From an uncultured Mycoplasmatota bacterium (GTDB taxonomy: Bacteria > Bacillota_I > Bacilli_A > RF39 > UBA660), in the NCBI GenBank assembly GCA_946497925.1, contig CAMMMG010000001.1:6192-70191 (forward strand): DNA of 64,000 nt, in the 5' to 3' direction. Positions 3,375 through 53,479 of this stretch are shown in pieces. The notes beneath the pieces were generated by a model that was not told the DNA's origin, ran no database searches, and saw only the letters and a program-made list of their open reading frames with translations. The translations under genes were made by a program, and so were the position numbers. Positions within the stretch are counted from its first letter, which is position 1, and each line of letters starts with the position of its first letter.

Positions 3375-4427
3375 GTGGTGCTTGTGAAGAAGAAAAGAAA
3401 AAGAAGAATAGCATTTATTATTTTTATAATTTTATTATTGGCTTTGATAGGAGGAGCTTACTATTATTTTGTTTATCTTGGTAATGATGTGCCTTTGGTA
3501 GAAAAAAAGGAAAAGTTAAATGTTTATGATGTTAATAGTAATAAACGTCCTATTGCTATTATGATTGATAATAATGTTGATAATGATGAACAAGTAGGGT
3601 TACAAGATGCTTATTTAACTTATGAGATAATAGTTGAAGGCGGATTAACTAGAATGATGGCTCTTTATAAAGATGTTGATACTAGTGTAATTGGGCCAGT
3701 TAGAAGTAGTAGACATTACTTTTTAGATTATGCTCTTGAGAATGATGCAATATATGCTCATTATGGATGGAGTACTTATGCAGAGAATGATATAAAGGCT
3801 CTTTCTGTTGATAATATTAATGGACTTTATGATGATGCCTTTTATCGTGATAGTAGTATTGCTGCTCCTCATAATGTTTTTACTAGTATTGATAATTTAT
3901 ATTTAAAAGCAGAAGAGTTAGGTTATGATACTACATCTAGTGATTATGAAAATTTAAATTATGTTAGTAAAAAGGTAGATTTGGAGAAAACTGATAATTC
4001 ATTAAACTGTGATGGGGAGAATTGTAGTTTAGAAGGTAGAAGTTTAACTAGTATTGATATTCCTTATTCAAATAGTGAAGTTAGAAGTTATACTTATGAT
4101 AGTGATAATGGTTATTATCTTCGTTATATGAATGGTATTCCTCATACTGATAGAGATAGTGGAGAACAATATCATTATAAAAATATAATTATTATGAAAG
4201 TAGATAATAGTACTCTTGATGATTATGGTAGACAAGATTTAGATACAGTAGGAACAGGAGTTGGTTATTATATTACTAATGGTTATATGATGCCTATTAC
4301 TTGGGAGAAAGATTCAAGAAGTGGTAAGACTTATTATTCTTATAGTAATGGTGATGAGGTTGAAATTAGTGATGGCAATACTTTTGTACAAGTAATGCCT
4401 AGTGATAGAGATATAGTAATAAGTTAA
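3375..4427 (+). CDS. DUF3048 (YerB-like) family lipoprotein, paralog 1
   Basis: N-terminal lysine-rich segment, then a TM/signal segment, then KRPIAIMIDNN...GLQDAYLTYEIIVEGGLTRMMALY, which resembles YerB/DUF3048. The likely true start is the GTG at ~3384, after the RBS GAGGTGG. Confidence 0.6.
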   Translation: MVLVKKKRKRRIAFIIFIILLLALIGGAYYYFVYLGNDVPLVEKKEKLNVYDVNSNKRPIAIMIDNNVDNDEQVGLQDAYLTYEIIVEGGLTRMMALYKDVDTSVIGPVRSSRHYFLDYALENDAIYAHYGWSTYAENDIKALSVDNINGLYDDAFYRDSSIAAPHNVFTSIDNLYLKAEELGYDTTSSDYENLNYVSKKVDLEKTDNSLNCDGENCSLEGRSLTSIDIPYSNSEVRSYTYDSDNGYYLRYMNGIPHTDRDSGEQYHYKNIIIMKVDNSTLDDYGRQDLDTVGTGVGYYITNGYMMPITWEKDSRSGKTYYSYSNGDEVEISDGNTFVQVMPSDRDIVIS

Positions 4428-4616
4428 AATGTAGTAATAAAGGACTGTCTATATGATAGTCCTTTTTTTGGCAGATAATACTACTTTTTAATTATGCTTA
4501 TAATGTATTATATTTTTTGCTTTATAAATTGTTTATTTTTTGTCAAGTATTTAAAACTTTATGGGAAACGTTTAATTATTCTCTATTGTATGATAAAATT
4601 TAGGTGGGTGGTAGTC

Positions 4617-5693
4617 GTGAGAAAGCTAAAGTCTTTAGGAGAAACTAGAATTAAGCCTAAAAGTAATAAAAAGAAAATAATTATAATTAGTGTTATTAGT
4701 GTAGCAGTACTTTTAATATTTGTTCTTCTTTTCTATTTTTTATTATCTATGAATGATAGTGAATCTAAGAAAAAAGATAAGGTAAAAATAGATGAGGCTA
4801 GTACTGTAGAAAAAAAAGATTTAACTGTTTATGATGTTAATAGTAATAAACGACCTATCGCTATTATGATTGATAATAATGTGGGTAATAATGCTCATGT
4901 AGGATTACAAGATGCTTATTTAACTTATGAAATAATAGTAGAAGGTGGCTTAACTAGAATTATGGCTATCTTTAAAGATGTTAATACTAGTGTAATTGGT
5001 CCAGTTCGTAGTAGTAGGCATTACTTTTTAGATTATGCACTTGAAAGTGATGCTATATATGCTCATTATGGATGGAGTACATATGCTGAAAATGATATTA
5101 GGGCTTTAGGTGTTAATAATATAAATGGACTTTATGATAATGGCTATTATCGTAATTATAATATAGCAGCACCTCATAATGTTTTTACTAGTATAGAAGA
5201 TTTATATAATGTTGCAGGAAGTAAAGGTTATAGTACTACTAGTGATAATTATAGTCTTTTGAATTATACTCCTGATGATGTTAATTTTGATGCTACAAGT
5301 GATTTGTTAACTGCTAATACCATTAGTATGACATATTCTTATAGCCAGGTTAGGAGTTATACTTATGATTCTACTAATAGATATTATTTACGTTATATGA
5401 ATAATAATCCGCATACTGATAAAAGTAGTGGGGTACAATATCATTATAAAAATATAATTATTATGAAAGTAAATAACTATACATTAGATAGTTATGGTAG
5501 ACAAGATTTAGATACTGTAGGTAATGGGGAAGGATATTACATTACTAATGGTTATGCTATACCTATTACTTGGAGTAAAGATTCTAGAAGTGGTAAGACT
5601 CATTATTATTATGGTGGTAATGAGTTAGTTGTTAGTGATGGTAATACGATGATACAAGTAGTACCTGTTAATAGTAGTATTACAATTAGTTAG
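4617..5693 (+). CDS. DUF3048 (YerB-like) family lipoprotein, paralog 2 (tandem duplicate)
   Basis: About 65% identical to the upstream gene over the mature domain. The track ORF starts at 4494 but its first ~40 aa are implausible. The GTG at 4617 is preceded by the RBS AGGTGGGTGG, mirroring paralog 1. Confidence 0.6.
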   Translation: MRKLKSLGETRIKPKSNKKKIIIISVISVAVLLIFVLLFYFLLSMNDSESKKKDKVKIDEASTVEKKDLTVYDVNSNKRPIAIMIDNNVGNNAHVGLQDAYLTYEIIVEGGLTRIMAIFKDVNTSVIGPVRSSRHYFLDYALESDAIYAHYGWSTYAENDIRALGVNNINGLYDNGYYRNYNIAAPHNVFTSIEDLYNVAGSKGYSTTSDNYSLLNYTPDDVNFDATSDLLTANTISMTYSYSQVRSYTYDSTNRYYLRYMNNNPHTDKSSGVQYHYKNIIIMKVNNYTLDSYGRQDLDTVGNGEGYYITNGYAIPITWSKDSRSGKTHYYYGGNELVVSDGNTMIQVVPVNSSITIS

Positions 5694-5701
5694 GGGGACT
5701 T

Positions 5702-8224
5702 ATGAAAAAGTTAAGTAAACATAAAAATGACATTATTAGTGTTTTAACTTTAATTATTATTAGTTTAGTTATCGTTTTAATTCTTGTTAATTTTACTAAT
5801 TTTTTTGGGTCTAAGAAGGACTGGCTTAGTCAGCATATTATGTTTCCTGATTATTTAAGAAAATTATTCTATGATACAGGAGACTTTTTTCCTAACTTTG
5901 CTTTTAATCTTGGTGGAGGACAAAATATCTATAATATCTCTTATTATGGACTTTTTAATCCTATTATTTTAATTTCTTATTTATTACCTTTTGTATCTAT
6001 GATGACTTATATACAGTTTAGTATGATTGTATGTTTAATAGTAAGTATTATTTTGATGTATTATTTCTTGAGAAGAAGATTTGATTCAAAGATATGTTTT
6101 GTTAGTACTTTACTATTTTTAACGGCAGGATGTTTTATTTTCCATTTACATCGCCATATTATGTTTGTAGATTATATGCCTTTTCTACTTATGGCTTTAA
6201 TAGGTGTTGATAAGTATTTTGATAAGAAGAAAATATCTTTATTAGTTATATCTATTTTCCTAATGATTTTAACTAGTTATTACTTTAGTGTTGTAGGATT
6301 AGTTTGTATCTTACTTTATGGTATTTTTAGATATATAGAAGATAAGAAAAATGAGAAAATTACAGTTAAAGATTTCTTTAAAGAAGGATTTAAATATCTT
6401 TTTGTAATGTTTATTCCAGTTCTTATGAGTTGTGTTTTATTACTTCCAACGCTTTATTCTTTACTTGATGGTAGGACTGCTACTAATAAGGATATTTCAT
6501 TACTAGGATTACTTATTCCTAACTTTGATATTTCTAATACTTTATATTCTGCTTATTCTCTTGGATTAAGTGCTATCTTTATAATTGCTTTAATATATGG
6601 AATTATTACTAAAAAAAGGGAAGTTAAAGTAATTAGTATAATCTTTAGTATTTTGTTAGTTTTTCCTGTCTTTGACTATATATTTAATGGGGGAATGTAT
6701 CTAAATGGTAAAGCTTTTATACCAATGTTACCTCTTGCTATTCTCTTAATTAGTTATTTCCTTAAGAATGTTTTTAATAATAAAAATAAGTTAAAGATTA
6801 TTATTATTATCTCTTTAATAGTTGCAATTATTAATCTTCTTGTTTTCCTTTATAAGGAAGAGAGTTTATGTTTATTATTTGTTGTTGATATGGTTCTTTT
6901 GGTTATTGTTATTCTTATTAGTTTTAAGCTAGAGAAAAAATATGTACTTTATGTTTATCTTGGTATTATTTCATTAATTATTGCTATTCCTACTAATTTT
7001 TCTGATATCTTTGTAACTAAAGAGTTTTATGATACTTTAGATTATGAAGAGACTAGTTCTAAAGTAAAACAAGTATTAGATAATGATAATAGTTTTTATA
7101 GAATGAGTGATCAAAGTGTTAAATTAGATAAGTCTAATTATATTTATGATGTAGATTACTATACTGGTAGTATTTATTCTTCTTTATCTAATTCTTATTA
7201 TAAAGATTTCTATAATAATTTAATTAATAATGAGTTTATTTATAGGAGTTATGGAATGCTTACAGGTAATAATAATATTTTCTATAATTTTTATATGGGT
7301 AATAAGTATTTACTTAATAGTAGTAATGGAATAATGGGATATGAAAAGATTTCTGATGGTATTTATAGAAATGAAGATGTTCTACCTATTGGATACAGTA
7401 CTAGTAAGATAATGAGTTTAGATGAGTATAAGAGTCTTAATTATTTTGAGAAGTTAGATGCGTATTTGAATTATGCTATTGTTGATGGGGATTATAGTGA
7501 TAGTTATGTTAAGAAAGTTAAAGATTATGTTCCAGATTATAATGTTTTAGAAAGTAAGAATTTAAGTATAGAAGAGGTTAATGGTAAATATTTTATTAAA
7601 GCTTCTAAAGATAATAAGTTAGTTGTTAAGTTAAATAATGTTAGTGATAGTGATATTGTACTTTTAAGATTTAAGATGCTTTATAATAATAAGTGTAGTG
7701 AAGATGATTCTTATATTACTATTAATGGAGTGAGTAATAAGCTTAGTTGTAGAAGATGGAAGTATCATAATAATAATTATATGTTTGAATATTCTTTGAG
7801 TGGAGATACTTTAGAAATTACTTTTAGTGAAGGTAAGTTTAGATTAACTGACTTTAATATGGCTTTATATGATTATAATGATTTAGCATCTATTAATGAT
7901 GAAATATCTCTTTTTGTTATTGATAGAGATAAGACTAAAGGTGATGTTATAGAAGGTAGTATTGATGTAAAAGAAGATGGTTACTTTAAACTATCTATTC
8001 CTTATGATAAAGGTTTTGAAGTTTATGTAGATGGTGAAAAGACTCCTTATGAAGTTGTTAATAAAAGTTTTATTGGTTTTGATATTAGTAAAGGTAGTCA
8101 TAATATTAAAATAGTTTATACTTCTCCTTTATTTAAAGAGGGATTAGTTATATCTTGTATTGGTTTAGTGTTGTTTGTAGGAACTGTTATTTATTATAGA
8201 AATAGAAAAAGAGAGAAAATATAG
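5702..8224 (+). CDS. YfhO-family polytopic membrane protein (putative glycosyltransferase for cell-envelope polymers)
   Basis: 840 aa with >10 predicted TM helices at the N-terminus, a large extracytoplasmic domain and a C-terminal TM helix. The N-terminal motif ...WLSQHIMFPDYLRKLFYDTGDFFPNFAFNLGGGQNIY... is typical of YfhO. Confidence 0.7.
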   Translation: MKKLSKHKNDIISVLTLIIISLVIVLILVNFTNFFGSKKDWLSQHIMFPDYLRKLFYDTGDFFPNFAFNLGGGQNIYNISYYGLFNPIILISYLLPFVSMMTYIQFSMIVCLIVSIILMYYFLRRRFDSKICFVSTLLFLTAGCFIFHLHRHIMFVDYMPFLLMALIGVDKYFDKKKISLLVISIFLMILTSYYFSVVGLVCILLYGIFRYIEDKKNEKITVKDFFKEGFKYLFVMFIPVLMSCVLLLPTLYSLLDGRTATNKDISLLGLLIPNFDISNTLYSAYSLGLSAIFIIALIYGIITKKREVKVISIIFSILLVFPVFDYIFNGGMYLNGKAFIPMLPLAILLISYFLKNVFNNKNKLKIIIIISLIVAIINLLVFLYKEESLCLLFVVDMVLLVIVILISFKLEKKYVLYVYLGIISLIIAIPTNFSDIFVTKEFYDTLDYEETSSKVKQVLDNDNSFYRMSDQSVKLDKSNYIYDVDYYTGSIYSSLSNSYYKDFYNNLINNEFIYRSYGMLTGNNNIFYNFYMGNKYLLNSSNGIMGYEKISDGIYRNEDVLPIGYSTSKIMSLDEYKSLNYFEKLDAYLNYAIVDGDYSDSYVKKVKDYVPDYNVLESKNLSIEEVNGKYFIKASKDNKLVVKLNNVSDSDIVLLRFKMLYNNKCSEDDSYITINGVSNKLSCRRWKYHNNNYMFEYSLSGDTLEITFSEGKFRLTDFNMALYDYNDLASINDEISLFVIDRDKTKGDVIEGSIDVKEDGYFKLSIPYDKGFEVYVDGEKTPYEVVNKSFIGFDISKGSHNIKIVYTSPLFKEGLVISCIGLVLFVGTVIYYRNRKREKI

Positions 8225-8317
8225 GCTCACTGTAAATAGAGCCCTATTTTTTATTAAAATTAAATTGCAAAAAGAGCGTTTGTGATATATAATATGTAGT
8301 CAAATAGAGGAGGAACT

Positions 8318-9307
8318 ATGGAAACAGTAAGATTTTGTGATACACTTAATTTTGATGATGGAAGTATAGAAATTAAATATAAAGGTGTGCCTTTAAGAGA
8401 AGATAGTAATGAAAATGAAGTAAGACGTATGTTGAGAGATTTTGTAGATAATCATAAGCACGATGATATGTTAGAAAATGTAACAATTTTAAGGACGATA
8501 TTTAGAGATTATATGGAAGTATCACTTGATGTTTATTTTTGTGATAAAAATGGTTCAGAATTTGTTCAATATGATAAGAGTCAACCTTTATTTTTATTTA
8601 AAAAGGTTTATAAAAAGTTTGATGGATATAATACTAAAGAAGTCACAGTTGAGTATAATACTAAAGATGGGATAAGTTTAAATTATAGTCACAGTGATAT
8701 GACAATTGTTTTTCCTAATAAACGTTCAACTGTTACTAAAGAAATAGACAATATTATGCAGTATATTGATACATTATTAACTGAGGTTAAAGCAATTACT
8801 TTAAATGATGATGATAAAGCATTAATAGAAATATATAAGTTATTCTATAAAGAAAATCCTGATTTTAGTAGTAAAGATATTAATGTTAAAGTCCAAACTA
8901 TGATGTCTATATTAGCAGGGTTTAATGTGACTTTGGACTGTGATTATTCTTTTTCTTTAATGACAAAATTAAAAATGCCAGTTTCTTTAAAGCTTGTAGA
9001 GATGGTTAAAAAAATGTATCCATTTGGTGTAGTTAGTGAAGTTGAAGATAATGTTAAATTAGCAGAAGAACCTAAGAAGATAATTGAAATTGTTGGTGAT
9101 AGTATAAGAGATGCAATTTCTTTAGAAGGTGATATGAATGAAGCTTTGATAACTATTAGTAAGGTTATTTATGCAAGTAGGTATAATCTTTCATCTAAGG
9201 CTGACATTAGGGAAATAGCAGAATTTACTAATCGTAGTGTTGATGATGTGGAAGCTAGTGTACAGTTAGTAAAACGTATTGAACATAAAATAAATAAAGA
9301 GAATTAA
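8318..9307 (+). CDS. hypothetical acidic cytoplasmic protein (329 aa)
   Basis: Track ORF with RBS AGAGGAGGAAC upstream. No recognisable motif. Confidence 0.5.
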   Translation: METVRFCDTLNFDDGSIEIKYKGVPLREDSNENEVRRMLRDFVDNHKHDDMLENVTILRTIFRDYMEVSLDVYFCDKNGSEFVQYDKSQPLFLFKKVYKKFDGYNTKEVTVEYNTKDGISLNYSHSDMTIVFPNKRSTVTKEIDNIMQYIDTLLTEVKAITLNDDDKALIEIYKLFYKENPDFSSKDINVKVQTMMSILAGFNVTLDCDYSFSLMTKLKMPVSLKLVEMVKKMYPFGVVSEVEDNVKLAEEPKKIIEIVGDSIRDAISLEGDMNEALITISKVIYASRYNLSSKADIREIAEFTNRSVDDVEASVQLVKRIEHKINKEN

Positions 9308-41655: not shown

Positions 41656-43251
41656 ATGGCTATGATAGAAAAGGTAGGTGTATATTGTAGATTATCTGAT
41701 GAAGATAGGTTTAAAGCTAATAAGAATGATGATAGTGATAGCATTGTAAATCAAAAGAGTATGTGTATTAAATATGCTCTTAAGCAAGGCTGGGATGTTG
41801 TAGATATTTATTCTGATGATGATTTCTCTGGGGCAGGTACTTATAGACCTGAATTTGAAAGATTAATTAAAGATTGTGAAAGTGGTAGAATTAATTTAGT
41901 TTTATGTAAAACACAATCTAGGTTTTCAAGAGACATGGAGATAATAGAAAAATACTTACATAATAAGTTCATCGAATGGAATGTTAGATTTGTTAGTATT
42001 GTAGATAATGCTGATACTAATATTGAATCTAATAAGAAATCAAGACAAATTAATGGACTAATAAATGAGTGGTATTTGGATGACTTATCACAGAACATTA
42101 AGAAATCATTAAAGAATAAAAGAGAAGATGGCTTATTTATGGGTAGCTTTGCTCCTTATGGTTATATGAGAAGTAGTGAAGATAAACATAAGTTAGTTAT
42201 TGATCCTGTTGCTAGTAAAGTTGTAAAAGATATTTTTAAAATGTATGAGAATGGTTATGGATATTATAAGATAAGCGAATATTTAAATAATGCTAACGTC
42301 TTAACACCAGCTTTATATAAAAAGCAAAATGGTAGTAAGTATGTATCTGGGACTTGTGATTATGATAATGTACGTTGGACTAGTGATACAATTGCAAAAA
42401 TTCTTAGGAATGAAGTTTATATTGGCAATTTAGTACAAGGTAAAAAAACATCTTTAGGGTATAAAGTTCATAAGTTTAAAACTGTACCTAAAAAGGATTG
42501 GTGTCTAATTGAAAATGCTCATGAGGCTATTATTTCTAAAGATACTTGGGAAAAGGTCCAGAAAAGACTTGCTAGTCATGAATGTCCTGTTAAATCAGGA
42601 GAAATACATTTCTTAAGTAAAAAAGTGTATTGTCTTAATTGTAAAAAGGTATTTATGAGAAATGTTTATAATGTAAAGGATGGTAAAAGAGCATATTTAC
42701 AATGTAAGGGTGTTAGAAGATTACATAATTGTTGTAATAATAAAGCGATAAGGTTAGATGAGTTAGAAGAAGTCTTATTAAATGCTATTAATGATTTACT
42801 AGATAACTATTATGATAAAGAAAAGCTAGAAAATGAATATAACATCAGAGAATCTAAAAATACAAATGATGAAGGAATTCAGATACTAGAACAAGAAAAG
42901 GTTTTACTTAATAAGAAAATAGAAGAAGAGAAAATATATTATAGAAAACTTTATGAAGATAAGGCTAATCTTGTAATAACTGAAGATATGTTTAAGATGT
43001 TATCAAGTGATTATACTAAAGAAATAGAAGAAATGAATAGAAGAGTTTCTATAATAGATGAAGAAATAGAATCTTTAAAGAAAATAACTGAAAATAAGAA
43101 ACAAGCAAAAGATATTTTAAAGAAATATAAGCATATAAGTAAGTTAAATAAAGTAATAGTAGATGAATTTATTGATAAAGTTTATATAGGAGTTTATGAT
43201 AAAGAAACGAAATCAAGAGATATTGAAATAGAATGGAACTTTGAATTTTAG
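41656..43251 (+). CDS. large serine recombinase (element 1 integrase)
   Basis: The N-terminal resolvase domain VGVYCRLSDEDR contains the catalytic Ser. A recombinase domain and zinc-ribbon follow (CLNCKKV...LQCKG), then a coiled-coil C-terminus. The stop lies 40 nt before attR. Confidence 0.9.
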   Translation: MAMIEKVGVYCRLSDEDRFKANKNDDSDSIVNQKSMCIKYALKQGWDVVDIYSDDDFSGAGTYRPEFERLIKDCESGRINLVLCKTQSRFSRDMEIIEKYLHNKFIEWNVRFVSIVDNADTNIESNKKSRQINGLINEWYLDDLSQNIKKSLKNKREDGLFMGSFAPYGYMRSSEDKHKLVIDPVASKVVKDIFKMYENGYGYYKISEYLNNANVLTPALYKKQNGSKYVSGTCDYDNVRWTSDTIAKILRNEVYIGNLVQGKKTSLGYKVHKFKTVPKKDWCLIENAHEAIISKDTWEKVQKRLASHECPVKSGEIHFLSKKVYCLNCKKVFMRNVYNVKDGKRAYLQCKGVRRLHNCCNNKAIRLDELEEVLLNAINDLLDNYYDKEKLENEYNIRESKNTNDEGIQILEQEKVLLNKKIEEEKIYYRKLYEDKANLVITEDMFKMLSSDYTKEIEEMNRRVSIIDEEIESLKKITENKKQAKDILKKYKHISKLNKVIVDEFIDKVYIGVYDKETKSRDIEIEWNFEF

Positions 43252-43293
43252 AATAATATTTAATATTTGGGACTTTCTGCTTCCTTCACATGG

Positions 43294-43561
43294 TGGTGCT
43301 GATCCTGGTGCTGTTAGTGGTGGTTTACAAGAGAAAGACTTTACATTAGATGCATCTTTATATATGTATGAAAGGTTACAACAGTTAGGTATACCTGCTG
43401 TTTTAACAAGAGATTCTGATGAAAACTTAAGTAGAACGGAAAGACTTAGACGGGCTAATGAAGCTTTTGGTGGTAGTAGTAATGCTATACTTATATCAAA
43501 TCATATAAATGCTGGAGGACAGGACGCGTATTATGTGGTTAATTCTAGGCATAGTGTATAA
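43294..43561 (+). pseudogene. middle fragment of the interrupted Amidase_3 gene
   Basis: In frame: GGADPGAVSGGLQEKDFTLDASLYMYERLQQLGIPAVLTRDSDENLSRTERLRRANEAFGGSSNAILISNHINAGG, the central Amidase_3 block. The bacterial sequence ends at 43518 and the frame continues into element 2 to a stop at 43561. Confidence 0.85.
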
Positions 43562-44341: not shown

Positions 44342-45313
44342 ATGTTTAATGAACTAGTTGATATTAAAGAAGAGAATTTATTACAGGCAAACAATGAAAT
44401 TTTATCTACTTTGCTTTTTGATAATACTACAAAAAAAAATATTATATGGGCTTCTGATAATTATGAAGGATATGGAGATGGATTTAGCTTTTCTCAAGAA
44501 ATAACAATTGATAAAATTACAGGTAAATATGATGGTGTAATAAAACCTCGTTCAAGAAAAACATCAAATGAGAAGTTGAAAAGAATTAAGGACAATGGAG
44601 AAGTTTTTACTCCATCATGGATATGTAATGAACAAAACAATCTAGTAGATGATGCGTGGTTTGGTAAAAAAAATGTATTTAATGTATCAGAACAAAAAAA
44701 ATGGATAGCTAACGAGTCAAAAATTGAATTTACAAAAGATAAAACATGGCAAGATTATGTAAAAAGTTTAAGATTAGAAATTTCTTGTGGAGAGGCTCCT
44801 TATCTCGTAAGTAGGTATGATACTGTTACGGGAAAAAGTATTAAAATCAGTGATAGAATTGGTTTATTAGATAGAAAATTGAGAGTGTTATCTGAAAATG
44901 TAGATTTAGAAAATGAATGGATAGATTGGTCAATTGTTGCTGTAAAAAGTATATATGGATATGATTTACAAGGCGATAATATTTTACTTGCAAGAGAAAA
45001 TATTTTATATACTTATATAGATTATTACAAAGATAAATTTAATAAAAAACCATCTCTTGATTTAATTAAGGAAATAGCCAAAATTATTAGTTGGAATATT
45101 TGGCAAATGGATGGTTTAAAATTCGTAATACCTAGAAGTTGTAAAAATGAAATAATTAAAGAATATACATTGTTCGGAGATATTGAAACAAAAACAGAAT
45201 GTACTGGGTGCAAAACGAACAATTATAAAGATCATAATGGCATTTACTGTAAAATAATGAATTGGGAAAAAAATAAAACCGTTAAATTTTATACATTAGT
45301 AAACAAAAAGTGA
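44342..45313 (+). CDS. methyltransferase-like protein carrying only the N-terminal gamma-class MTase motifs (X and a glycine-poor motif I); no catalytic motif IV
   Basis: GEVFTPSWICNEQNNLV fits the FTP motif X of Eco57I/PglX-type N6-MTases. RLEISCGEAPYLV aligns to motif I (LEPSCGxGxFL) with two of its three glycines replaced. No (N/D)PP(Y/F) is present. Confidence 0.5.
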   Translation: MFNELVDIKEENLLQANNEILSTLLFDNTTKKNIIWASDNYEGYGDGFSFSQEITIDKITGKYDGVIKPRSRKTSNEKLKRIKDNGEVFTPSWICNEQNNLVDDAWFGKKNVFNVSEQKKWIANESKIEFTKDKTWQDYVKSLRLEISCGEAPYLVSRYDTVTGKSIKISDRIGLLDRKLRVLSENVDLENEWIDWSIVAVKSIYGYDLQGDNILLARENILYTYIDYYKDKFNKKPSLDLIKEIAKIISWNIWQMDGLKFVIPRSCKNEIIKEYTLFGDIETKTECTGCKTNNYKDHNGIYCKIMNWEKNKTVKFYTLVNKK

Positions 45314-45323
45314 GGTGAGATAG

Positions 45324-48300
45324 ATGGAGAATAAAGAATTATTAGATAAAATAATTGTTGGAAGAGTAGAACCACATATTTATGCTTTTACAACAAATAC
45401 AATACCTAATTATTTGAAAGTAGGAGATACTTATAGACCTGTATCAGTAAGACTTAATGAATGGAAAGAAGTGTATCCTGAATTAAAAAAAGAGTATGAA
45501 AAGAAAGCGATGGTTGACGAAAATATTTTCTTTAGAGATTATGCAGTTCATCATTATTTAGAAAATGATTTAAATAAAGAGCGAATAAATCCTAATGACT
45601 TTTCTAATATATATGTTTCAAATGAATTTTTTAAGGAAACTTCTGTTATAGATGTGGAATCTGCGATAGAAGATATTCAAAAAAGTTATGAAGAAAACTT
45701 GATGAAGTATCAATATTACAATGCAAATAGTAGATTAAGAACAATCGAAAGATATGTTTCAACAGGCTATTGGAAACCAAGACCAAATCAACAAACTGTT
45801 ATTGATAAATTTGTAGAGGCATATAAAAAAGGTAGAAATAATTTGTTAATGTACGCTATTATGCGTTTTGGAAAGAGTTTTACATCAATGTGTTGTGCAT
45901 TAGAGATGGATGCAAATATAGTTGTCATCGTGTCGGCAAAAGCAGATGTTAAAGAAGAATGGAAAAAAACGGTTGAAAGTGCAGAAAATTTTAATGAATA
46001 TGATTTTTTAACAAGTGAAGATTTACTTGATGAAAATATAATTAAAAATAAAAGAAGAGAAAATAGAAGATTAGCAATATTTTTAACTCTTCAGGATTTA
46101 CAGGGGACTGAAATAAAAGAAAAACATAAAGAATTATTCAATAATCAGATAGATTTATTATTAATTGATGAAACTCATTTTGGTGTAAGAGCCGACAAAT
46201 ATGGTGCTGTGCTTAGAGCTGGATTCAAAGATGTTAATGAGACTAGGGAAGATGGATTTGTTGATTTTGAGGATGCTAATAATCAAGTAAAGGCTTTGAA
46301 TTCAAAAATAAGAATTCATTTATCTGGAACACCATATAGAATTCTAATGGGAAGTGAATTTTCACATGATGATATTATAGCATTTTGCCAATTTTCTGAC
46401 ATTGTAAGCGAGCAAGAGAAGTGGGATAATGAACACTTTAAAGATATCGAAAATGGTGTAATAAACGATGAAACGGGTAAACCTTATGAAGAGTGGGATA
46501 ATCCATATTTTGGATTTCCACAAATGATAAGATTTGCTTTTAATCCAAATGAATCTGTAAGGAGAAGGCTAGAAAAATTGAAAAATAATGGAAACTTTTA
46601 TGCATTTTCCGAGTTGCTTAGAACGAATTCAATTAGACAAAATTCAAATGGTGAACATAAAAAATTTATTTATGAAAGTGAAGTGTTAGATTTATTAGAA
46701 GTTATTGATGGTACTAAGGATGATGTAAATGTATTAGGTTTTTTGGATTATGATAAAATTAAAGAAGGGAAAATGTGTCGCCATATCGTAATGGTATTAC
46801 CTTATCGTGCTTCATGTGATGCTTTAGAAGAATTAATAAAAAATAATAGTGATAAATTTAAAAATTTAAATGAATATGAGATTATAAATATATCAGGTGT
46901 TGATAAGCCTAATTTATATAAAAATGTTAAAGATATAAAAAATAAAATTAAAGATTATGAAAAGGAAAATAAGAAAACCTTAACATTAACAGTCAATAGA
47001 ATGCTTACTGGTAGTACTGTGGAAGAATGGGACACGATGATATATTTAAAGGATACATCATCTCCACAAGAATATGATCAAGCAATTTTCAGGTTGCAGA
47101 ATCAATATGTCAAAGATTATTTATCTAGTAATGGGGATTTAATTAAATATAATAAGAAGCCGCAAACATTATTAGTTGATTTTGATCCAAATAGAATGTT
47201 TATAATGCAAGAAACAAAAGCTATGATATATAACGCAAATGTTGATAAATCTGGAAATAGTAAATTAGAAGAAAGAATTAGAAATGAGTTAAATATATCT
47301 CCAATAATTGTATTAAATAAAAACAAGATTCAGAAAATACAAGCCATTGATATTATGAATGCAATAAGTAACTATTCTAAAGACAGGGGAGTTTTTGAAG
47401 AAGCTGGTGATATCCCAGTGGATTTATCTCTTATTGCTGTTCCAGAAATATTTGAAGTTATTTCAAAACAAGGAGAATTTGGAACAAGACAAGGATTTAG
47501 AGTTAATAATACAGATACTGATAGTGATGATAATGATTCTTTTGACTTTGGAGAATTAAGCGAGACTTTATTTGATTATCCACAAGATACCGAGATTGAA
47601 AGTCAAACAGGAACGTCAAGCAATCAAAAAGAGAAGAATGATATAAAAAGTAATTTAACAAAACAATTTAGAACTTATTATGCTAGAATTTTGTTCTTTG
47701 CAATATTAACAAAAGATTCCGTATCGTCATTAGAAGATATAATTAATGTAATTAACCAAGGAGAAAATAAAAGAATTGCAAATCATTTAGGATTGAGCAA
47801 AGAAGTTTTGTTTTTGATTAATAAAGAGATAGATATATTCATTTTAAGACAGCTTGATTATAAGATTCAAAATATAAATAGTTTATCAAATGATGATTCA
47901 CTATCTGAGATTGAAAGAGCTACTATTGCTATTAATAAATTTGATAAACTATCTGACTCTGAAGTTATAACTCCACAAAATGTATGTAGAGATATGCTAG
48001 AAATGATAGGAAAAGATAAGATTGTTGATATTATTAATAATAAAGGTAATATTTTAGATATTGCAAGCAAAGAAGCAGAATTTATGTTATCATTAGTTAA
48101 TATTTTAAAAGAAAATAATGTTTCCAATGAAAGATATAAAAATAATCTATATTCAATTCCAACTTCAGGTGTTGCTTATGAATTTACCAGAAAGATATAC
48201 GAAATATTAGGATTAAATATAAGCAATATTTCCGAAAAATTTGATTCTTATGATTTATTAAATGTTAAAACAGATGATAATATAGATTATGAAAAAATTG

Positions 48301-49415
48301 TTAATTATATAACGCAAACACAAACGTTTTCAGATATAGAATTAGATGATAATTTATTTAGTAATATGAAAGGAGATGAAAGAATGCACTTTGATATTGT
48401 TGTTGGTAATCCTCCATATCAAGAAGCTGATGGTGGTGCAGGAGCGAGTGCTAGACCTATATACAATTATTTTGTAAATCTTTCTAAAAAATTAGATCCT
48501 AAATTTGTTTCACTAATTATACCTTCTCGTTGGTATGTTGGCGGGAAAGGATTAGATGAGTTTAGAAAAGATATGGTCAATGATATACATATAAAGGAAT
48601 TACATGATTGCTTAACACCCGATGATATTTTTCCAAATACTAATAATCGTGGTGGAATTTGCTATTGGTTATGGGACAAAAGTTATAATAATAAAGAAAA
48701 TTCTGTTAAAGTAATAACCCATTCCAATAATAAAGTAGTAGATGAAATGATTAGACCTTTGAAATTGTATGATGAAGATATATTTATTAGAGATAGCAGA
48801 GCAAAGACTATTTTAGATAAAATTGTAACAAAAGATTTTAAATCCTTTAGTGAGATAGTATCGTCAAGAAAACCGTTTGGACTTGATGGAAATTTTGCCA
48901 GAAGTAACAAAATAACAAATGAAAAAACAAAAGAAAATACTGTTATTTGCTATATTAAGGGTAAGAAAAAAGTATTTGTTAATTTAAAATCAATTTTATG
49001 TCATGGTGATTGGGTTGATAGTTGGAAAGTATTTATTCCTAGAGCAAATAATATTGGTACTGAATTAAATGATGATAATATGAATTCTTTTGTTGGTGAA
49101 CCAAATACAATATGTACTGAATCATATTTAGTTGTTGGAGCAGATTTATCATTAAATCAGGAAACATCTAAAAATTTAGCTAAATACTTGCAAACAAAAT
49201 TCTTGAGATATTTACATAGTTTATTAAAAAGTAGTCAAGATGCTACTTCTAAAACTTTTAGTTATGTACCAATAGAAGATTTTGGTGAAAATTCAAGCAT
49301 TGATTGGTCGAAATCAGTTTCTGAAATAGATATGCAATTATATGAAAAATACAGTCTTGAAAAAGAAGAAATAAATCATATTGAAGAAAAAATTAAGCCA
49401 ATGGAGCAATTATGA
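45324..49415 (+). CDS. 1363-aa multidomain protein: N-terminal T5orf172/GIY-YIG-like domain, SF2 (Res/SNF2-like) helicase, and C-terminal N6-adenine DNA methyltransferase-like domain plus a possible target-recognition region
   Basis: The N-terminus GRVEPHIYAFTTNTIPNYLKVGDTYRPVSVRLNEW resembles the T5orf172 module. Helicase motifs are RPNQQTVI (Q), AIMRFGKSFT (I), LLLIDETHFG (II, DExH), LSGTPYR (III), and V/VI-like LTGSTV and QAIFRLQN. The MTase has motif IV FDIVVGNPPYQEADGG preceded by a degenerate motif I, ILDIASKEAEF. Confidence 0.75.
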   Translation: MENKELLDKIIVGRVEPHIYAFTTNTIPNYLKVGDTYRPVSVRLNEWKEVYPELKKEYEKKAMVDENIFFRDYAVHHYLENDLNKERINPNDFSNIYVSNEFFKETSVIDVESAIEDIQKSYEENLMKYQYYNANSRLRTIERYVSTGYWKPRPNQQTVIDKFVEAYKKGRNNLLMYAIMRFGKSFTSMCCALEMDANIVVIVSAKADVKEEWKKTVESAENFNEYDFLTSEDLLDENIIKNKRRENRRLAIFLTLQDLQGTEIKEKHKELFNNQIDLLLIDETHFGVRADKYGAVLRAGFKDVNETREDGFVDFEDANNQVKALNSKIRIHLSGTPYRILMGSEFSHDDIIAFCQFSDIVSEQEKWDNEHFKDIENGVINDETGKPYEEWDNPYFGFPQMIRFAFNPNESVRRRLEKLKNNGNFYAFSELLRTNSIRQNSNGEHKKFIYESEVLDLLEVIDGTKDDVNVLGFLDYDKIKEGKMCRHIVMVLPYRASCDALEELIKNNSDKFKNLNEYEIINISGVDKPNLYKNVKDIKNKIKDYEKENKKTLTLTVNRMLTGSTVEEWDTMIYLKDTSSPQEYDQAIFRLQNQYVKDYLSSNGDLIKYNKKPQTLLVDFDPNRMFIMQETKAMIYNANVDKSGNSKLEERIRNELNISPIIVLNKNKIQKIQAIDIMNAISNYSKDRGVFEEAGDIPVDLSLIAVPEIFEVISKQGEFGTRQGFRVNNTDTDSDDNDSFDFGELSETLFDYPQDTEIESQTGTSSNQKEKNDIKSNLTKQFRTYYARILFFAILTKDSVSSLEDIINVINQGENKRIANHLGLSKEVLFLINKEIDIFILRQLDYKIQNINSLSNDDSLSEIERATIAINKFDKLSDSEVITPQNVCRDMLEMIGKDKIVDIINNKGNILDIASKEAEFMLSLVNILKENNVSNERYKNNLYSIPTSGVAYEFTRKIYEILGLNISNISEKFDSYDLLNVKTDDNIDYEKIVNYITQTQTFSDIELDDNLFSNMKGDERMHFDIVVGNPPYQEADGGAGASARPIYNYFVNLSKKLDPKFVSLIIPSRWYVGGKGLDEFRKDMVNDIHIKELHDCLTPDDIFPNTNNRGGICYWLWDKSYNNKENSVKVITHSNNKVVDEMIRPLKLYDEDIFIRDSRAKTILDKIVTKDFKSFSEIVSSRKPFGLDGNFARSNKITNEKTKENTVICYIKGKKKVFVNLKSILCHGDWVDSWKVFIPRANNIGTELNDDNMNSFVGEPNTICTESYLVVGADLSLNQETSKNLAKYLQTKFLRYLHSLLKSSQDATSKTFSYVPIEDFGENSSIDWSKSVSEIDMQLYEKYSLEKEEINHIEEKIKPMEQL

Positions 49416-50419
49416 ATAATGAAGTAGAATTAATTAATCTATATAAGAAATTGGAATCACTTCCTAAAATTAAAAAGTGTTTGTATCCAGACAAAGAACA
49501 TTGCAAAGGAAAAATCAAAAGAGCTCATACTATACAAAATAATAAAATTTTGATAAGTGTTTCTGATAATGGGAATCTAATTGCATTAAATGGCAAAACA
49601 ACTCTAGGATTTCAAGATTATGAAAAACAAGGAAGAGGAGTAGCAAGTACTTTTTGGGGATTTTGTGATTATCATGATACTGTTGTTTTTGAACCTATTG
49701 AAAATTATGATTATGATAAATCTTTAAAACAAACATTTTTATATACATACAGAACTTTTTCGTGGCATTATTATTTAAAAGAGATGCAATTAAATAAAAA
49801 TAATTATTTACAAGAGAAAATTCCTGTTAATATGGAAAGTAATGAGTATTTTTTAGGTACTTCGCTAGGAATTAGTGATAATAAAAAATTGAAAGAAAAA
49901 TTTGATAAAGCAATTTTGAGTAATAATTATGACATAATAAAATATTATGTTTGGGAAATTCCATTTAAAATAGAGTTTTGCTGTTGTGGTATGGTGCAAT
50001 TATTTAAAGATTTACGAGGAAATGATATTAATAATTACGAGGGTTTAGCAAATATTAATAAACCAATGAAAAATCTTTTTATAAATATATTTCCAGAAAA
50101 AAATAAATCATATTGCATTTTTTCATGGATGGTTGATGATTTTGAATACGAAAATTTTACTCTTCAATTTTCAAAATTGACTTTTAAAAACAAGATAAAT
50201 TATATGAATAATATGCTACCAAAGGAAACTGATAAAATTTTTATTAATCCAAAATTATGGAATAAATGGGGAAATGGTATTCAACAGTCATTTATTGAAT
50301 GGGCAAATGTCAGTATGTTGCTTAATGCAATGCAAGCAGAATCACATAAACGAATAAAATGGAAGTATTCGTTTGTTCCATGGAATTTATTTGATTGTTC
50401 TGAAAAATTAAAGAAGTAA
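49412..50419 (+). CDS. hypothetical protein (335 aa), translationally coupled (ATGA overlap) to the giant helicase-MTase gene
   Basis: Track ORF with a 4-nt overlap with the upstream stop. No recognisable motif. Cys/His-containing, including a CCCG stretch. Confidence 0.5.
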   Translation: MNNEVELINLYKKLESLPKIKKCLYPDKEHCKGKIKRAHTIQNNKILISVSDNGNLIALNGKTTLGFQDYEKQGRGVASTFWGFCDYHDTVVFEPIENYDYDKSLKQTFLYTYRTFSWHYYLKEMQLNKNNYLQEKIPVNMESNEYFLGTSLGISDNKKLKEKFDKAILSNNYDIIKYYVWEIPFKIEFCCCGMVQLFKDLRGNDINNYEGLANINKPMKNLFINIFPEKNKSYCIFSWMVDDFEYENFTLQFSKLTFKNKINYMNNMLPKETDKIFINPKLWNKWGNGIQQSFIEWANVSMLLNAMQAESHKRIKWKYSFVPWNLFDCSEKLKK

Positions 50420-50432
50420 GAGGTGAAGTTTT

Positions 50433-52937
50433 TTGAATCAAAAATGGTTATTATGTGATTTACATATGCATTCACAATATTCAAAAATAAATAAACCAGG
50501 TGATAAAAGTAGAGTAAAAGATATGGTAGCTAGTGAATTTGTTGATATACTTAATCAGTCAGGTGTTGAATTATTTAGTATAACTGATCATAATTATTTT
50601 TCTGATGTTTACTATGATGAAATCGATAAATATATTACCGATAATGATTTAAATATGAAAATTATAAATGGTGTTGAATTAGATGCATATGTTGAATTAA
50701 AAGATGGAACAAAGGATAGTATTCATATTTGTATATATTTTTCAGATAGTACTGATAGAAAAAAGCTTAATAAAGTAATTTATTCATTATACAGAGATAA
50801 CAACGATAATATGTTAGAACCTTTATTTATGGAAATAATAAATAAATTGACTGAACTCAATACAAAGTTTATCATAATTCCTCATGGAGATAAGCATAAG
50901 GGACTATTTAAAATAATTAAAAATTTAAATAGTGAAGATGCCGTTGATTTTTATAAGTATTCAATGTATAAAATATTTAATGCATTTGATGTGAGACCAG
51001 GATTTTATAGTGTAAGCGAATCATTTTGGGCTACAAATTTTTACGAAAAAACTAAGTCATTTGATAAAATTCTGTCAAATTATGATGATGATAAATTAGA
51101 AAATTTGAAGAGTAATATTTCAAATAAAATAAAGGATGATACTTACGAGTTAACGGAAGAAGAACTGGAGATATATAGATATATATTAGATTATGGAAGT
51201 TATTTTGCATATTTCACTTTTTCTGATTGGCATAATAAAGAAGATTACAAACCAGAAATAAATAATTTCGTATTTGGAACACTTGAATATGGCTTTGAAG
51301 CAGTAGAATTAGCAACATTAGATCCTAAATCGCGAATAGAACAATCTCATGATAAATATATTGCAATTCCTTCTACATTATTAAAAAAAGTTGAATTTAA
51401 AATAAAAGATGATAAGAAAGAAATTTATTTTTCCCCTGGATTAAATGCTATTGTTGGTAAAAGAGGCAGTGGTAAGTCACTATTATTATCTGTTATAAAA
51501 AATTTAGTAGAAAAAGACGCAGAAGATGGTGCATTAAATAAGTATAAAAAGTTAGAAATTTCAGATATTATTGGACAAAATCGCGATAATATTAACATTT
51601 CTTTAGGCAGTTTAAGTTCTGTAGCGTTCTTGAATCAAGATCAAATTAAAGAGATATTTGAAAATCCAGAAAACGCACAAGAAAATATATCTAAAAATTT
51701 TAAGGAAATTAAGAATTTAAATTTAAATGATTTGATAAATATATCTGATGTAGCTAGTAAACTTAAGCCATATAATAAAAATTATAAAAATCTAACATCG
51801 AATATTATTTCAATAAAGAAAATTGATGATTATAATTTAAGTGCATATGAAGAACTTGATAATGTTAATTTTAAAAAATATTTTAGTGATAGTATTAACT
51901 CTTTGAGACTTGCCATAAATGAATTAGAAAATTTGGGATTAGATAGTAGTAAATTAGAAATAGAACTTTCTAATTTATATAAATATCAAAAATATTATTT
52001 AAAAATGATTGAATTATACAATACAATTATTAATAAGAATAATGCAGTTATTAATGATATTAATTCAAAGAAATCAGCAAATGAGATAACAATAAAGCAG
52101 AATATAAATACTATAAATAGTACGATTAAAGAATTAAAAAATAATTTTACAATCCAATTAAACTATGAAAAATTAAAATTATTAATTAACAATTTTAGTT
52201 TTGACAATCCTCCTGTTGAAGTGTCGATTAAGGGTAAATATTTATTTGTAACATATTATGATATACCTACAAATATGAGAGATATAATATTAGATAAAAT
52301 TACAGATACAATTATTCGTTCAAAAGAATTCGGAGATATTGAAAATTATCTTTCGGGTGATAAGAATAAGCAATTGAAGTCGGGAAAGAAGAATCTTTCT
52401 GAAGAATTAGATAAATATATAAAGAGTGATACATTCAAATCAAAAAAAGAATTTTATGAAATAATAGATGCATCTATTGATTATAAGAAACAAATAAGTA
52501 GTATGAACGAATTAGAAGATTACTTAAAACAAAATAAAATAAGAAATTTAACGGACGCATCACCTGGTATGAAAAGTGTAGCGTATTTGGATATGTTGTT
52601 TGATTTAGATGAGACAATTCTGATTTTAGATCAACCAGAAGATAATATAGATAATGACTATATAAGTAAATATTTAGTTCCTAATATTAAGGGTAAAAAG
52701 AAGATTAAACAATTAATATTTGTAACTCATAATCCGTCTGTTGCTGTATATGGCGATTCATTTAACTATGTGTATGTAGAAAATAACAATAAAATAAATT
52801 ACACAAATTATTTAATAGAGAGAAAAGAAGATAAGGATAAGTTGATAAATATTTTAGAAGGTGGAAAGAATAGTTTCTCAAATAGAAATAAAAAATTTGG
52901 AAATGTATTAGGAGATGAAGAATATGGAAATTATTAA
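50433..52937 (+). CDS. fusion of an N-terminal PHP-domain metal-dependent phosphoesterase/nuclease with an ABC/AAA_21-type ATPase separated by a long coiled-coil/insert
   Basis: PHP motifs are LCDLHMHSQYS and ITDHNYFS. Walker A is SPGLNAIVGKRGSGKSLL (about residue 340). Walker B/D-loop is ILILDQPEDNIDNDY (about residue 735), then FVTHNP (H-loop-like). Confidence 0.7.
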   Translation: MNQKWLLCDLHMHSQYSKINKPGDKSRVKDMVASEFVDILNQSGVELFSITDHNYFSDVYYDEIDKYITDNDLNMKIINGVELDAYVELKDGTKDSIHICIYFSDSTDRKKLNKVIYSLYRDNNDNMLEPLFMEIINKLTELNTKFIIIPHGDKHKGLFKIIKNLNSEDAVDFYKYSMYKIFNAFDVRPGFYSVSESFWATNFYEKTKSFDKILSNYDDDKLENLKSNISNKIKDDTYELTEEELEIYRYILDYGSYFAYFTFSDWHNKEDYKPEINNFVFGTLEYGFEAVELATLDPKSRIEQSHDKYIAIPSTLLKKVEFKIKDDKKEIYFSPGLNAIVGKRGSGKSLLLSVIKNLVEKDAEDGALNKYKKLEISDIIGQNRDNINISLGSLSSVAFLNQDQIKEIFENPENAQENISKNFKEIKNLNLNDLINISDVASKLKPYNKNYKNLTSNIISIKKIDDYNLSAYEELDNVNFKKYFSDSINSLRLAINELENLGLDSSKLEIELSNLYKYQKYYLKMIELYNTIINKNNAVINDINSKKSANEITIKQNINTINSTIKELKNNFTIQLNYEKLKLLINNFSFDNPPVEVSIKGKYLFVTYYDIPTNMRDIILDKITDTIIRSKEFGDIENYLSGDKNKQLKSGKKNLSEELDKYIKSDTFKSKKEFYEIIDASIDYKKQISSMNELEDYLKQNKIRNLTDASPGMKSVAYLDMLFDLDETILILDQPEDNIDNDYISKYLVPNIKGKKKIKQLIFVTHNPSVAVYGDSFNYVYVENNNKINYTNYLIERKEDKDKLINILEGGKNSFSNRNKKFGNVLGDEEYGNY

Positions 52938-53199
52938 AAAGAATGAGGCTATACAATTAGTTGAAAATCAAAAAATTATTGAGGAATATAAGTTTGATAA
53001 TGAAATTAATTTTTCAAAATTAATGGAATATTTATTATCATTAAACTTATCTAAAAAAATCACATTAGACGATAAAGTCTCTAATAAAAAATTGGAAGAA
53101 GAAAATTTGTTAAAAATAATAACTAATATTATAAATGACTACAATAATAAAACAGAGGAATTAGAGACTTTTAAGAAGGAAATAGAGAATAAAGATTAA
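52915..53199 (+). CDS. small acidic/coiled-coil protein (94 aa), overlaps the end of the PHP-ATPase gene
   Basis: Track ORF with a 23-nt overlap with the upstream gene. Possible operon member. Confidence 0.4.
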   Translation: MKNMEIIKKNEAIQLVENQKIIEEYKFDNEINFSKLMEYLLSLNLSKKITLDDKVSNKKLEEENLLKIITNIINDYNNKTEELETFKKEIENKD

Positions 53200-53454: not shown

Positions 53455-53479
53455 GAGAGATTTTTTATCTCTCTTTTTT
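53455..53479 (+). terminator. rho-independent terminator closing the element-2 operon
   Basis: Stem GAGAGAT / ATCTCTC followed by TTTTTT. Confidence 0.5.

Follow-up and report, generated by a model that had tools for sequence, protein, structure and literature searches.

Type ISP restriction-modification enzymes, as outlined in two published accounts (PMC3553950, PMC4666363), carry in order a nuclease, a superfamily 2 (SF2) helicase-like motor, a coupler, a gamma-class adenine methyltransferase (MTase) and a target-recognition domain (TRD); the 2012 Type ISP paper merely remarks that related enzymes with GIY-YIG nucleases exist. Natural two-chain MTases are documented for C5 enzymes only, as in M.AquI and M.EcoHK31I, active C5-cytosine MTases made of two polypeptides from adjacent genes (PMC3404938). 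An MmeI-like MTase, an SF2 helicase and a T5orf172 protein stand together in one conserved defence-island cluster, DnmA-YeeB-YeeC (PMC9973331). Here we describe a gene pair in a 64-kb stretch of contig CAMMMG010000001.1 from an uncultured Mycoplasmatota bacterium (the window, meaning the whole stretch analysed). The pair encodes a 323-amino-acid (aa) protein, A, that resembles the N-terminal half of an N6-adenine MTase, and a 1363-aa protein, B or the giant, in which a motor is joined to a degenerate MTase N-half (module N') and to a catalytic and target-recognition half (module C). We see an even chance that A (module N) supplies S-adenosylmethionine (SAM) binding in trans to the C-half of the giant for host methylation, N' being a motor-bound pseudo-half.

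The two genes lie on the forward strand of the window, with positions counted from its first letter:

44342-45313, + strand: gene A, an open reading frame (ORF) of 323 aa
45314-45323, + strand: spacer of 10 nucleotides (nt) between A and B, with a ribosome-binding site, GAGGTGAG, straddling the end of A
45324-49415, + strand: gene B (the giant), an ORF of 1363 aa with a nuclease-like N-terminus, SF2 motor, linker, N' and C

No terminator-like site was found between A and B by a sequence scan, and the arrangement reads as one operon. A promoter scan was uninformative, returning 93 sites against about 87 expected in DNA of 26% GC. Megablast against phage and plasmid records returned no close DNA relative of the locus.

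The features of A that bear on its identity are:

44597-44623, + strand: motif X, GEVFTPSWI, aa 86-94; E87, V88, F89, T90, S92 and W93 are invariant in the family
44771-44809, + strand: motif I, RLEISCGEAPYLV, aa 144-156, the putative SAM loop; E146, C149, G150, E151, P153, Y154 and L155 are invariant
44954-44980, + strand: motif II, YGYDLQGDN, aa 205-213, with the acidic D208; strand E204-208 in the A model
45089-45115, + strand: motif III, SWNIWQMDG, aa 250-258; all nine residues are invariant
45140-45250, + strand: Cys/His cluster C267, C287, C290, H298 and C303, lying after motif III and ahead of the expected motif IV position

Protein A thus shows motifs X, I, II and III in the order of gamma-class N6-adenine MTases (Eco57I/TaqI-like); motif IV and a TRD are absent from the chain. 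A first-pass annotation, made from the letters of the window, had reported motif X and no catalytic (N/D)PP(Y/F) in A, and this holds, with the pattern [NDS]PP[YFWH] occurring nowhere in the protein. It had also described motif I as altered. RLEISCGEAPYLV is indeed present, but it is not badly degenerate: against the canonical loop FLEPAAGDGNFLV of an N-half on an Enterococcus faecium plasmid (L258, described below), A keeps the first glycine of GxG and has alanine for the second. The counterparts of motifs X and II in the plasmid protein are GEVFTPQWM and IYGIEFLADN.

The relatives of A place it within the enzyme class. A is co-linear with the first ~320 aa of fused Eco57I-family MTases of 650-710 aa, which consist of an A-module, then, ~10 residues beyond A's end, MKFDFVIGNPPYQ, and a C-half homologous to B 1018-1363; A thus ends ~10 residues before the motif IV position of these proteins. 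PADLOC cuts the fused relatives into an N model (residues 7-318) and a C model (322-666). A therefore covers, co-linearly, the motif X-III portion of a complete gamma-class enzyme. Over its full length A matches the REBASE-derived PADLOC MTase_II model PDLC03390, and by tblastn aa 80-253 match genes annotated 'N-6 DNA methylase'. Pfam and NCBIfam gave no matches in A, and a PDB sequence search with A, B and the fused-MTase profile returned none. An alignment of A to some non-MTase family, which would have spoken against the initial assignment, was not seen: A aligns only to MTase N-halves. Together these data strongly support A as the N-terminal half of a gamma-class N6-adenine MTase, stopping at the linker before strand beta-4. 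Between motif III and this end point, C267, C287, C290 and H298 are invariant and C303 nearly so in the family alignment, and the A model places a beta-hairpin there (E270-276 / E279-285). A zinc ribbon, with the zinc binding that this would imply, is possible; the cluster is absent from some N-halves of the three-gene architecture described below.

The family to which A belongs is large and uniform. There are at least 8,000 close homologs of 321-324 aa and at least 1,864 clusters at 50% identity, with length tightly held at 320-350 aa. Sequences 65-96% identical to A share ~120 invariant columns, which include all four motifs and the Cys/His cluster, and the SAM motifs are under the same constraint in free N proteins as in fused N-C enzymes. 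Used as a search pattern, SWNIWQMDG found more than 500 loci in each of three contig collections. The family spreads over Bacillota, Bacteroidota and Spirochaetota, gut members of these among them, as well as Elusimicrobiota, Melainabacteria and one archaeal bin. Carriers also include conjugative plasmids of Enterococcus faecium, a plasmid of Bifidobacterium longum and a jumbo phage, and among strains with the gene pair are Treponema pectinovorum ATCC 33768 and Oceanivirga miroungae.

To define how A and the giant are associated, loci were retrieved from both sides. In a forward set of 80 species-representative genomes retrieved through A, nearly all loci have a 320-350-aa A-like ORF immediately followed by a 1300-1400-aa giant, wherever the contig allows. 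In a reverse set of 80 metagenome loci, retrieved by the helicase region of the giants alone, A stands directly upstream in 79/79 giants with enough sequence, at a gap of 9-197 nt; the 80th locus has only 75 nt of upstream sequence. The A-giant cassette is found in unrelated contexts, often behind a small helix-turn-helix (HTH) gene, and these contexts hold no other MTase.

The missing motif IV and TRD, together with the existence of fused full-length versions, could be taken to mean that A is the decaying remnant of a full-length companion MTase and now a functionless pseudogene fragment. We give this next to no credence: the narrow length range, the invariant columns, the number of clusters, the position upstream of every assessable giant and the broad spread over phyla refute it.

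Several irregular loci accompany this set. Proteins of 510-890 aa that looked like free-standing N'-C chains were weighed as autonomous enzymes with the lysine-containing motif I described below and rejected, being contig-truncated or split giants with A upstream or, in one case, a decayed locus. A very divergent A-like gene (L152, positions 1950-2462), with 25% identity over A residues 66-280, lies 197 nt from its giant and could represent either a further N-half subfamily or a copy in decay. In seven loci (L016, L042, L047, L060, L073, L173 and L174) the giant is split into two ORFs at differing points inside or just after the helicase; the pieces measure 484 + 869 aa in Oceanivirga miroungae, and those of L174 768 + 563 aa. 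Such splits may reflect frameshift pseudogenes, phase variation or genuine two-chain motors.

The giant divides into the following regions:

45324-45743, + strand: aa 1-140, putative T5orf172/GIY-YIG-like nuclease domain, proposed from a pattern shared with relatives
45744-47423, + strand: aa 141-700, SF2 helicase-like ATPase (the motor) of 560 aa, conserved in giants; Pfam ResIII at 151-338
47424-47933, + strand: aa 701-870, linker or coupler between motor and N', 34-73% conserved in type-1 giants (defined below) and assigned to no family
47934-48374, + strand: aa 871-1017, module N', a degenerate MTase N-half with motif X EVITPQNV, motif I ILDIASKEAEF and motif II LYSIPTS
48051-48083, + strand: the motif I-like ILDIASKEAEF, aa 910-920, with lysine at the usual first-glycine position of GxG
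48375-49412, + strand: aa 1018-1363, module C, the catalytic half (motif IV onward) and TRD, assigned by homology and PADLOC
48399-48422, + strand: motif IV, VVGNPPYQ, aa 1026-1033, of the NPPY type

The N-terminus of B shares the pattern IYA(F/Y)TT...K(V/I)G.T...R with the N-termini of the L025 giant and of the shorter motor protein (R) of L169, both of which pass the Pfam T5orf172/MUG113 thresholds. Pfam itself gave no match on aa 1-140 of the window copy, and no Mrr or PD-(D/E)xK match was found there. Elsewhere in B, Pfam reports Eco57I at 940-1103 (3e-24) besides ResIII, and NCBIfam reports no match. The full-length protein matches PADLOC REase_MTase_IIG (PDLC03626). Residues 1018-1360 match a separate 348-aa PADLOC MTase_II model, PDLC03375, which begins at motif IV, and module C is homologous both to the C-terminal half of the fused MTases and to free-standing C proteins of 334-364 aa.

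We modelled B 850-1363 with AlphaFold2 (mean predicted local distance difference test score, pLDDT, 87.9; predicted template-modelling score 0.85) and obtained a complete Rossmann-type domain plus TRD. N' is modelled as beta1-alphaA-beta2-alphaB with pLDDT ~95, and the strands fall at 909-915 (beta-1, NILDIAS), 942-946 (beta-2) and 1023-1028 (beta-4). The position of beta-1 indicates that ILDIASKEAEF is the true motif I of B and that no glycine loop was missed elsewhere. A hidden glycine-containing motif I, which would have told against the original description, was looked for and none was found; GxG strings occur in B only after NPPY, at aa 1038 and 1074. Motif X (EVITPQNV) lies at aa 880-887, and motif II (LYSIPTS, about aa 943) has no acidic residue. 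Foldseek with this model matched CamA, M.BseCI, PglX, BpuSI, DrdV and M.TaqI (E 5e-16 to 1e-9, template-modelling score about 0.5), with probability 1.0 for CamA, M.BseCI and M.TaqI; further down came the Type ISP enzymes LlaGI (5ffj) and LlaBIII (4xqk), with E 1e-8 and probability 1.0. B 850-1363 therefore has the fold, TRD and NPPY of a gamma-class MTase and lacks its glycine-rich SAM loop and acidic motif II. The model predicts with high confidence that B is structurally complete, N' and C forming one Rossmann-type MTase domain plus TRD in cis. The first-pass annotation had held that neither protein looks like a complete MTase. This stands for A, a half-enzyme, and does not stand structurally for B.

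The degenerate motif I of the giant is a trait of its family. We aligned the 175 residues before NPPY of 55 giants, which fall into two subfamilies. Type 1 giants, the type of the window, carry SEVITP, (I/V)LDIA(S/G)K.(G/A)EF and IY(S/T)IPTS; type 2 giants carry ETVLTPW, ILEINSK(T/S)GLYPLY and VFVICKTPMA. The SK.G form of motif I and the acid-less motif II are conserved in 55/55 giants, and motif IV is NPPY in 54/55 and NPPF in one. The loss of glycines from motif I next to a perfect VVGNPPYQ, as originally reported for the window, is thus confirmed and lies far beyond chance. One glycine after the lysine is usually kept in both subfamilies, its place being taken by alanine in the window B. 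All B homologs that reach the motif I region have LDIASK.G or LEINSK.G there, and none has the canonical loop. Isolated N' segments matched Pfam Eco57I in 6/18 cases (best E 1.3e-6). N' also terminates the shorter R proteins, which lack NPPY, and across the three N' groups the lysine of motif I is the only nearly invariant residue. Because N' can occur with no catalytic half attached, catalysis cannot itself be its function. Both N and N' are called MTase N-halves here on the strength of the fused relatives, the Pfam matches and the AlphaFold2 model. With conservation of this order, neither the missing motif IV of A nor the degenerate motif I of B is a sign of decay.

A census of 80 viral or prophage contigs showed that N, N' and C are joined in more than one way. 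The arrangement of the window, N followed by nuclease-helicase-N'-C, was seen in about 50 loci. In about 12 loci a fused N-C protein is directly followed by R, a 1067-1140-aa ResIII protein without NPPY, giving N-C then nuclease-helicase-N'. In about 9 loci all three are separate genes, in the order N, C and nuclease-helicase-N'; the N proteins of these three-gene lineages are 48-75% identical and their gene junctions differ (3-nt or 5-nt gaps, 4-nt or 11-nt overlaps). L190 was left out of this class for a frameshift inside motif III. The R proteins begin with a T5orf172/MUG113 (GIY-YIG superfamily) domain and end in an orphan N' (NQIFTPKKVV, DLYMKSGLY, VYG.APTE) that stops where motif IV would begin. 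Beyond these classes, a metagenome-assembled locus (L044) has a 327-aa N and a 334-aa C starting MKFNAIIGNPPYQ, with no motor, and in the P0141 cluster N is fused to the front of the motor protein. The L258 plasmid (NZ_CP071961.1, 1055-6137) carries a 230-aa N-half with the canonical GxG loop and no NPPY; its match to Pfam N6_Mtase, above threshold, is confined to profile positions 20-104. The gene immediately downstream of this N-half encodes a giant with ILEINSKTGLYPLY ... MKFDVVIGNPPYQ (LEINSKTGLY ... NPPY). We regard L258 as an independent replicate of the pairing of N-half and giant. These comparisons point to a large restriction-modification family that connects one set of three modules in at least three ways. 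The first-pass annotation had offered a split MTase, unconventional SAM binding or a regulatory pseudo-enzyme as alternatives. Of these the split MTase fares well in part: separate N and C genes, complementary motif sets on adjacent genes and fused single-chain relatives are all found, and they join the evidence for A as an N-half. Since N' and C are modelled as complete in cis, the system has three modules and not two complementary halves.

Two further loci were observed on mobile DNA. In the Tenacibaculum jumbo phage PTm1 (L259, NC_049340.1, 193941-196373) the order is C, a small HTH gene and N, again with no motor; the 344-aa C-half is annotated 'DNA methyltransferase' and the 335-aa N-half 'restriction endonuclease subunit M'. 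This pair is possibly a phage-borne split MTase for self-protection. On a second Enterococcus plasmid (L257, NZ_CP116515.1) the giant is paired with a 282-aa A-like N-half, and a DUF262 gene follows the cassette. The giants of both Enterococcus plasmids have a different N-terminal region in place of the T5orf172-like one, with a weak DUF4145 match in L258.

The degeneracy of both SAM-related motifs of N' and the lack of a catalytic motif in A alone also allow a reading in which N'-C is a dead reader only and A is not an MTase subunit, protection coming from an unlinked MTase or from non-methylation means, and the system not being true restriction-modification. There is precedent in DnmA-YeeB-YeeC, as clusters of MTase, helicase and T5orf172 protein need not act as classical restriction-modification (PMC9973331). 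Against it, NPPY and the SAM motifs of A are invariant across thousands of sequences, and N-C fusions and motorless pairs of N and C exist, including in one phage, for which an MTase is the obvious use. The cassette also moves self-contained into contexts without another MTase, and in the 64-kb window a crude motif scan found no other candidate, that is, no other ORF with a full NPPY-type motif. We consider this reading very unlikely.

From the module homologies, the obligate linkage, the conserved degenerate motifs and the alternative wirings we propose that A and B work together as an obligate, ATP-dependent restriction-modification system of two genes, with three modules derived from an MTase. 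C would carry the specificity and the adenine pocket for both activities. N and C together would form a SAM-competent MTase that marks host DNA; in the window, where C is fused to N', A must then act in trans and would touch C physically. N' with C is probably unable to methylate, having no glycine loop and no ribose-binding acid, and would instead serve as a reader of sequence and modification, allowing motor and nuclease to act where DNA is unmodified.

Several observations weigh against this proposal. The modelled completeness of N'-C in cis means that A cannot simply fill an empty slot, so that displacement or a different contact would be needed. N' keeps the motif I acid and a motif III Asp, so that B may still bind SAM, residually or in an unconventional way. 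Confidence in the A model is low (pLDDT 61), and the model, which covers half a domain, gave no significant fold match with Foldseek. In an hhalign comparison of the A family with the N' alignment only motif X aligned, at a probability of 2%, which is not significant. Our literature search found no description of the A-giant family, nor of split adenine MTases in restriction-modification. Covariation within type-1 systems, evaluated by correlations and a partial Mantel test, is no kinder: A covaries with the motor (r 0.74) and N' (r 0.71) and hardly with C (r 0.18), and, with the motor controlled for, A and N' retain a partial r of 0.31 (p 0.002), A and C one of 0.05. The data hint at contact between A and N' as much as between A and C.

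In a rival reading, B would be a self-sufficient Type ISP-like enzyme, in which N'-C binds SAM through an unconventional pocket, with the lysine-containing motif I and Thr/Ser replacing the motif II acid, and methylates one strand alone. A would then be an accessory that docks on N' or the motor, for instance to sense SAM, to assist assembly or to restrain restriction. Consistent with this, the model of N'-C is a full MTase fold of high confidence with the active CamA, M.BseCI and M.TaqI among its top matches, NPPY is invariant in all giants but one, the motif I acid and motif III Asp are kept, the N' lysine is conserved as a functional residue would be, and A covaries with N' beyond the motor. 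Set against these points, N' ends R proteins that have no catalytic half, indicating a role apart from catalysis, and an N'-C protein without an upstream N-half gene was never found. The SAM-contacting motifs of A are all kept, under constraint as in fused and presumably active enzymes, and the canonical GxG N-half of L258 would be without evident purpose if its giant bound SAM. We therefore hold self-sufficiency of B to be rather unlikely, and retain the supply of SAM binding by A in trans as our working model.

The same covariation analysis separates C from the rest of the giant. N' co-diverges with the motor (r 0.80), and the catalytic core and TRD follow each other within C (r 0.83), while C against everything else gives r of about 0.2; C thus behaves as an independently shuffled cassette. 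Identity between the subfamilies is 59% for A and 16-24% over the motor and N', N' standing at 16%. Co-evolution of A with C had been read from these identities and was dropped, as the partial Mantel test within type 1 is not supportive; they suggest only that A is far more constrained than the motor. One of 144 loci (L175) has a spare C gene, of 343 aa (8001-9032), 276 nt downstream of the giant (3778-7725). The spare C is 71% identical to the giant's own C, with the first ~41 and last ~25 residues identical and the middle (the TRD) divergent, as would be expected if it were a reserve cassette for switching specificity by recombination. The shuffled C and this spare copy suggest a compact route to specificity switching.

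An extension of the model is that C alternates between the two N-halves, acting with the SAM-competent N as an MTase and with the motor-tethered, SAM-incompetent N' as a reader of unmodified adenine that fires the helicase-nuclease. Such an exchange would explain why C is found fused to either N-half or free, and how one recombination in C could re-target both activities, and it would make modification and restriction mutually exclusive states of a single active site. We regard it as unlikely.

The surroundings of the gene pair in the window were also surveyed. Positions 1-64000 have a GC content of 23-32%. GC skew stays strongly positive, at 0.2-0.5, between about 4 kb and 62 kb, and the + strand holds nearly all ORFs of at least 120 aa. 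Skew and ORF orientation fit one long co-oriented block in a low-GC genome of the Bacillota or Mycoplasmatota type, for example a run of leading-strand genes or a prophage-like element. A 335-aa ORF (49412-50419, +) has its ATG overlapping the B stop codon (ATGA) and belongs to no Pfam, NCBIfam or PADLOC family. It was rejected as a third component: it recurs, at 84% identity, only behind the giants of four close relatives (L004-L007; 4/176 loci).

Next comes an 834-aa protein (50433-52937, +) with an N-terminal metallohydrolase-like region and an AAA/ABC-type ATPase, partially matching the NCBIfam TrlF-family ATPase (4e-67, below cut-off) and PADLOC Ppl (1e-20). It is followed by a 94-aa ORF (52915-53199, +) and a terminator-like hairpin (53455-53473), and is probably a separate defence gene; at its position L004-L007 have an OLD-TOPRIM and UvrD (Gabija-like) pair. 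Upstream of A, at 41656-43561 (+), lie a large serine recombinase (Resolvase, Recombinase, Zn ribbon and DUF4368) and a directly adjoining 106-aa ORF that reads by eye like a fragment of an N-acetylmuramoyl-L-alanine amidase. In L004-L007 the cassette sits between an Amidase_3 fragment and a serine recombinase. Such surroundings suggest an integrative element inserted in an amidase gene.

Type ISP is the closest class by layout. B has the same domain order, and its modelled C-terminal part matches LlaGI and LlaBIII; the label 'ISP-like' given by the first-pass annotation is apt to that extent and does not carry over to membership. B has the SF2 motor, MTase and TRD of the class. Type ISP enzymes, however, consist of one polypeptide, have an Mrr-family nuclease and lack a partner protein, whereas an N-half gene precedes all of the assessable giants here and the system was never seen as one chain; its nuclease is T5orf172/GIY-YIG-like in relatives, and motifs I and II are degenerate. 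The MTase of Type ISP has a normal SAM loop. No sequence similarity of B to Type ISP PDB chains was detectable.

In Type III (Mod/Res) and Type I (HsdM/S/R) systems the motor-nuclease takes its target recognition from the MTase side. The two wirings with a separate R protein resemble them, having a TRD on the MTase and none on the motor-nuclease, so that the motor must borrow target recognition from the MTase. The differences are that the MTase is cut here between motifs III and IV, that the motor carries a pseudo-N-half, that the catalytic/TRD half can be attached to either partner, and that the nuclease is N-terminal and T5orf172-like, not PD-(D/E)xK.

Type IIG enzymes (BpuSI, MmeI) have no ATP-dependent motor and a SAM-competent MTase domain. 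The giant shares with them a nuclease and an MTase-TRD in one chain, as its full-length PADLOC match reflects, and departs from them in its 560-aa SF2 ATPase and degenerate motifs I and II. CamA, M.BseCI, M.TaqI, the Type IIG/IIL enzymes BpuSI and DrdV, and PglX of bacteriophage exclusion (BREX) show the motif order X-I-II-III-IV and then the TRD, as here. They are single-chain MTase domains with glycine-containing SAM loops, none with a detached N-half partner. Public annotations of the present family are inconsistent ('restriction endonuclease subunit M', 'restriction endonuclease', 'Type IIG'), so methylome-to-gene assignments and defence-system censuses probably mislabel it.

M.AquI and M.EcoHK31I differ from the A-giant pair in where they are divided, the break falling after motif VIII or setting off motif IX alone, and in having neither a motor nor a second degenerate half. 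DnmA-YeeB-YeeC has the same three functional ingredients as the A-giant system, but DnmA is a complete MTase, helicase and T5orf172 domain are on separate proteins, and no split halves or pseudo-half are described for it. If A and C assemble in trans, this would be, as far as we have searched, the first natural N6-adenine MTase to be divided within its Rossmann fold, with motifs III and IV on either side of the break, and the first restriction-modification family with a motor protein that bears an MTase pseudo-half; it would offer a natural template for split, programmable adenine MTases. Set beside these described systems, the A-giant pair is a new variant of ATP-dependent restriction-modification.

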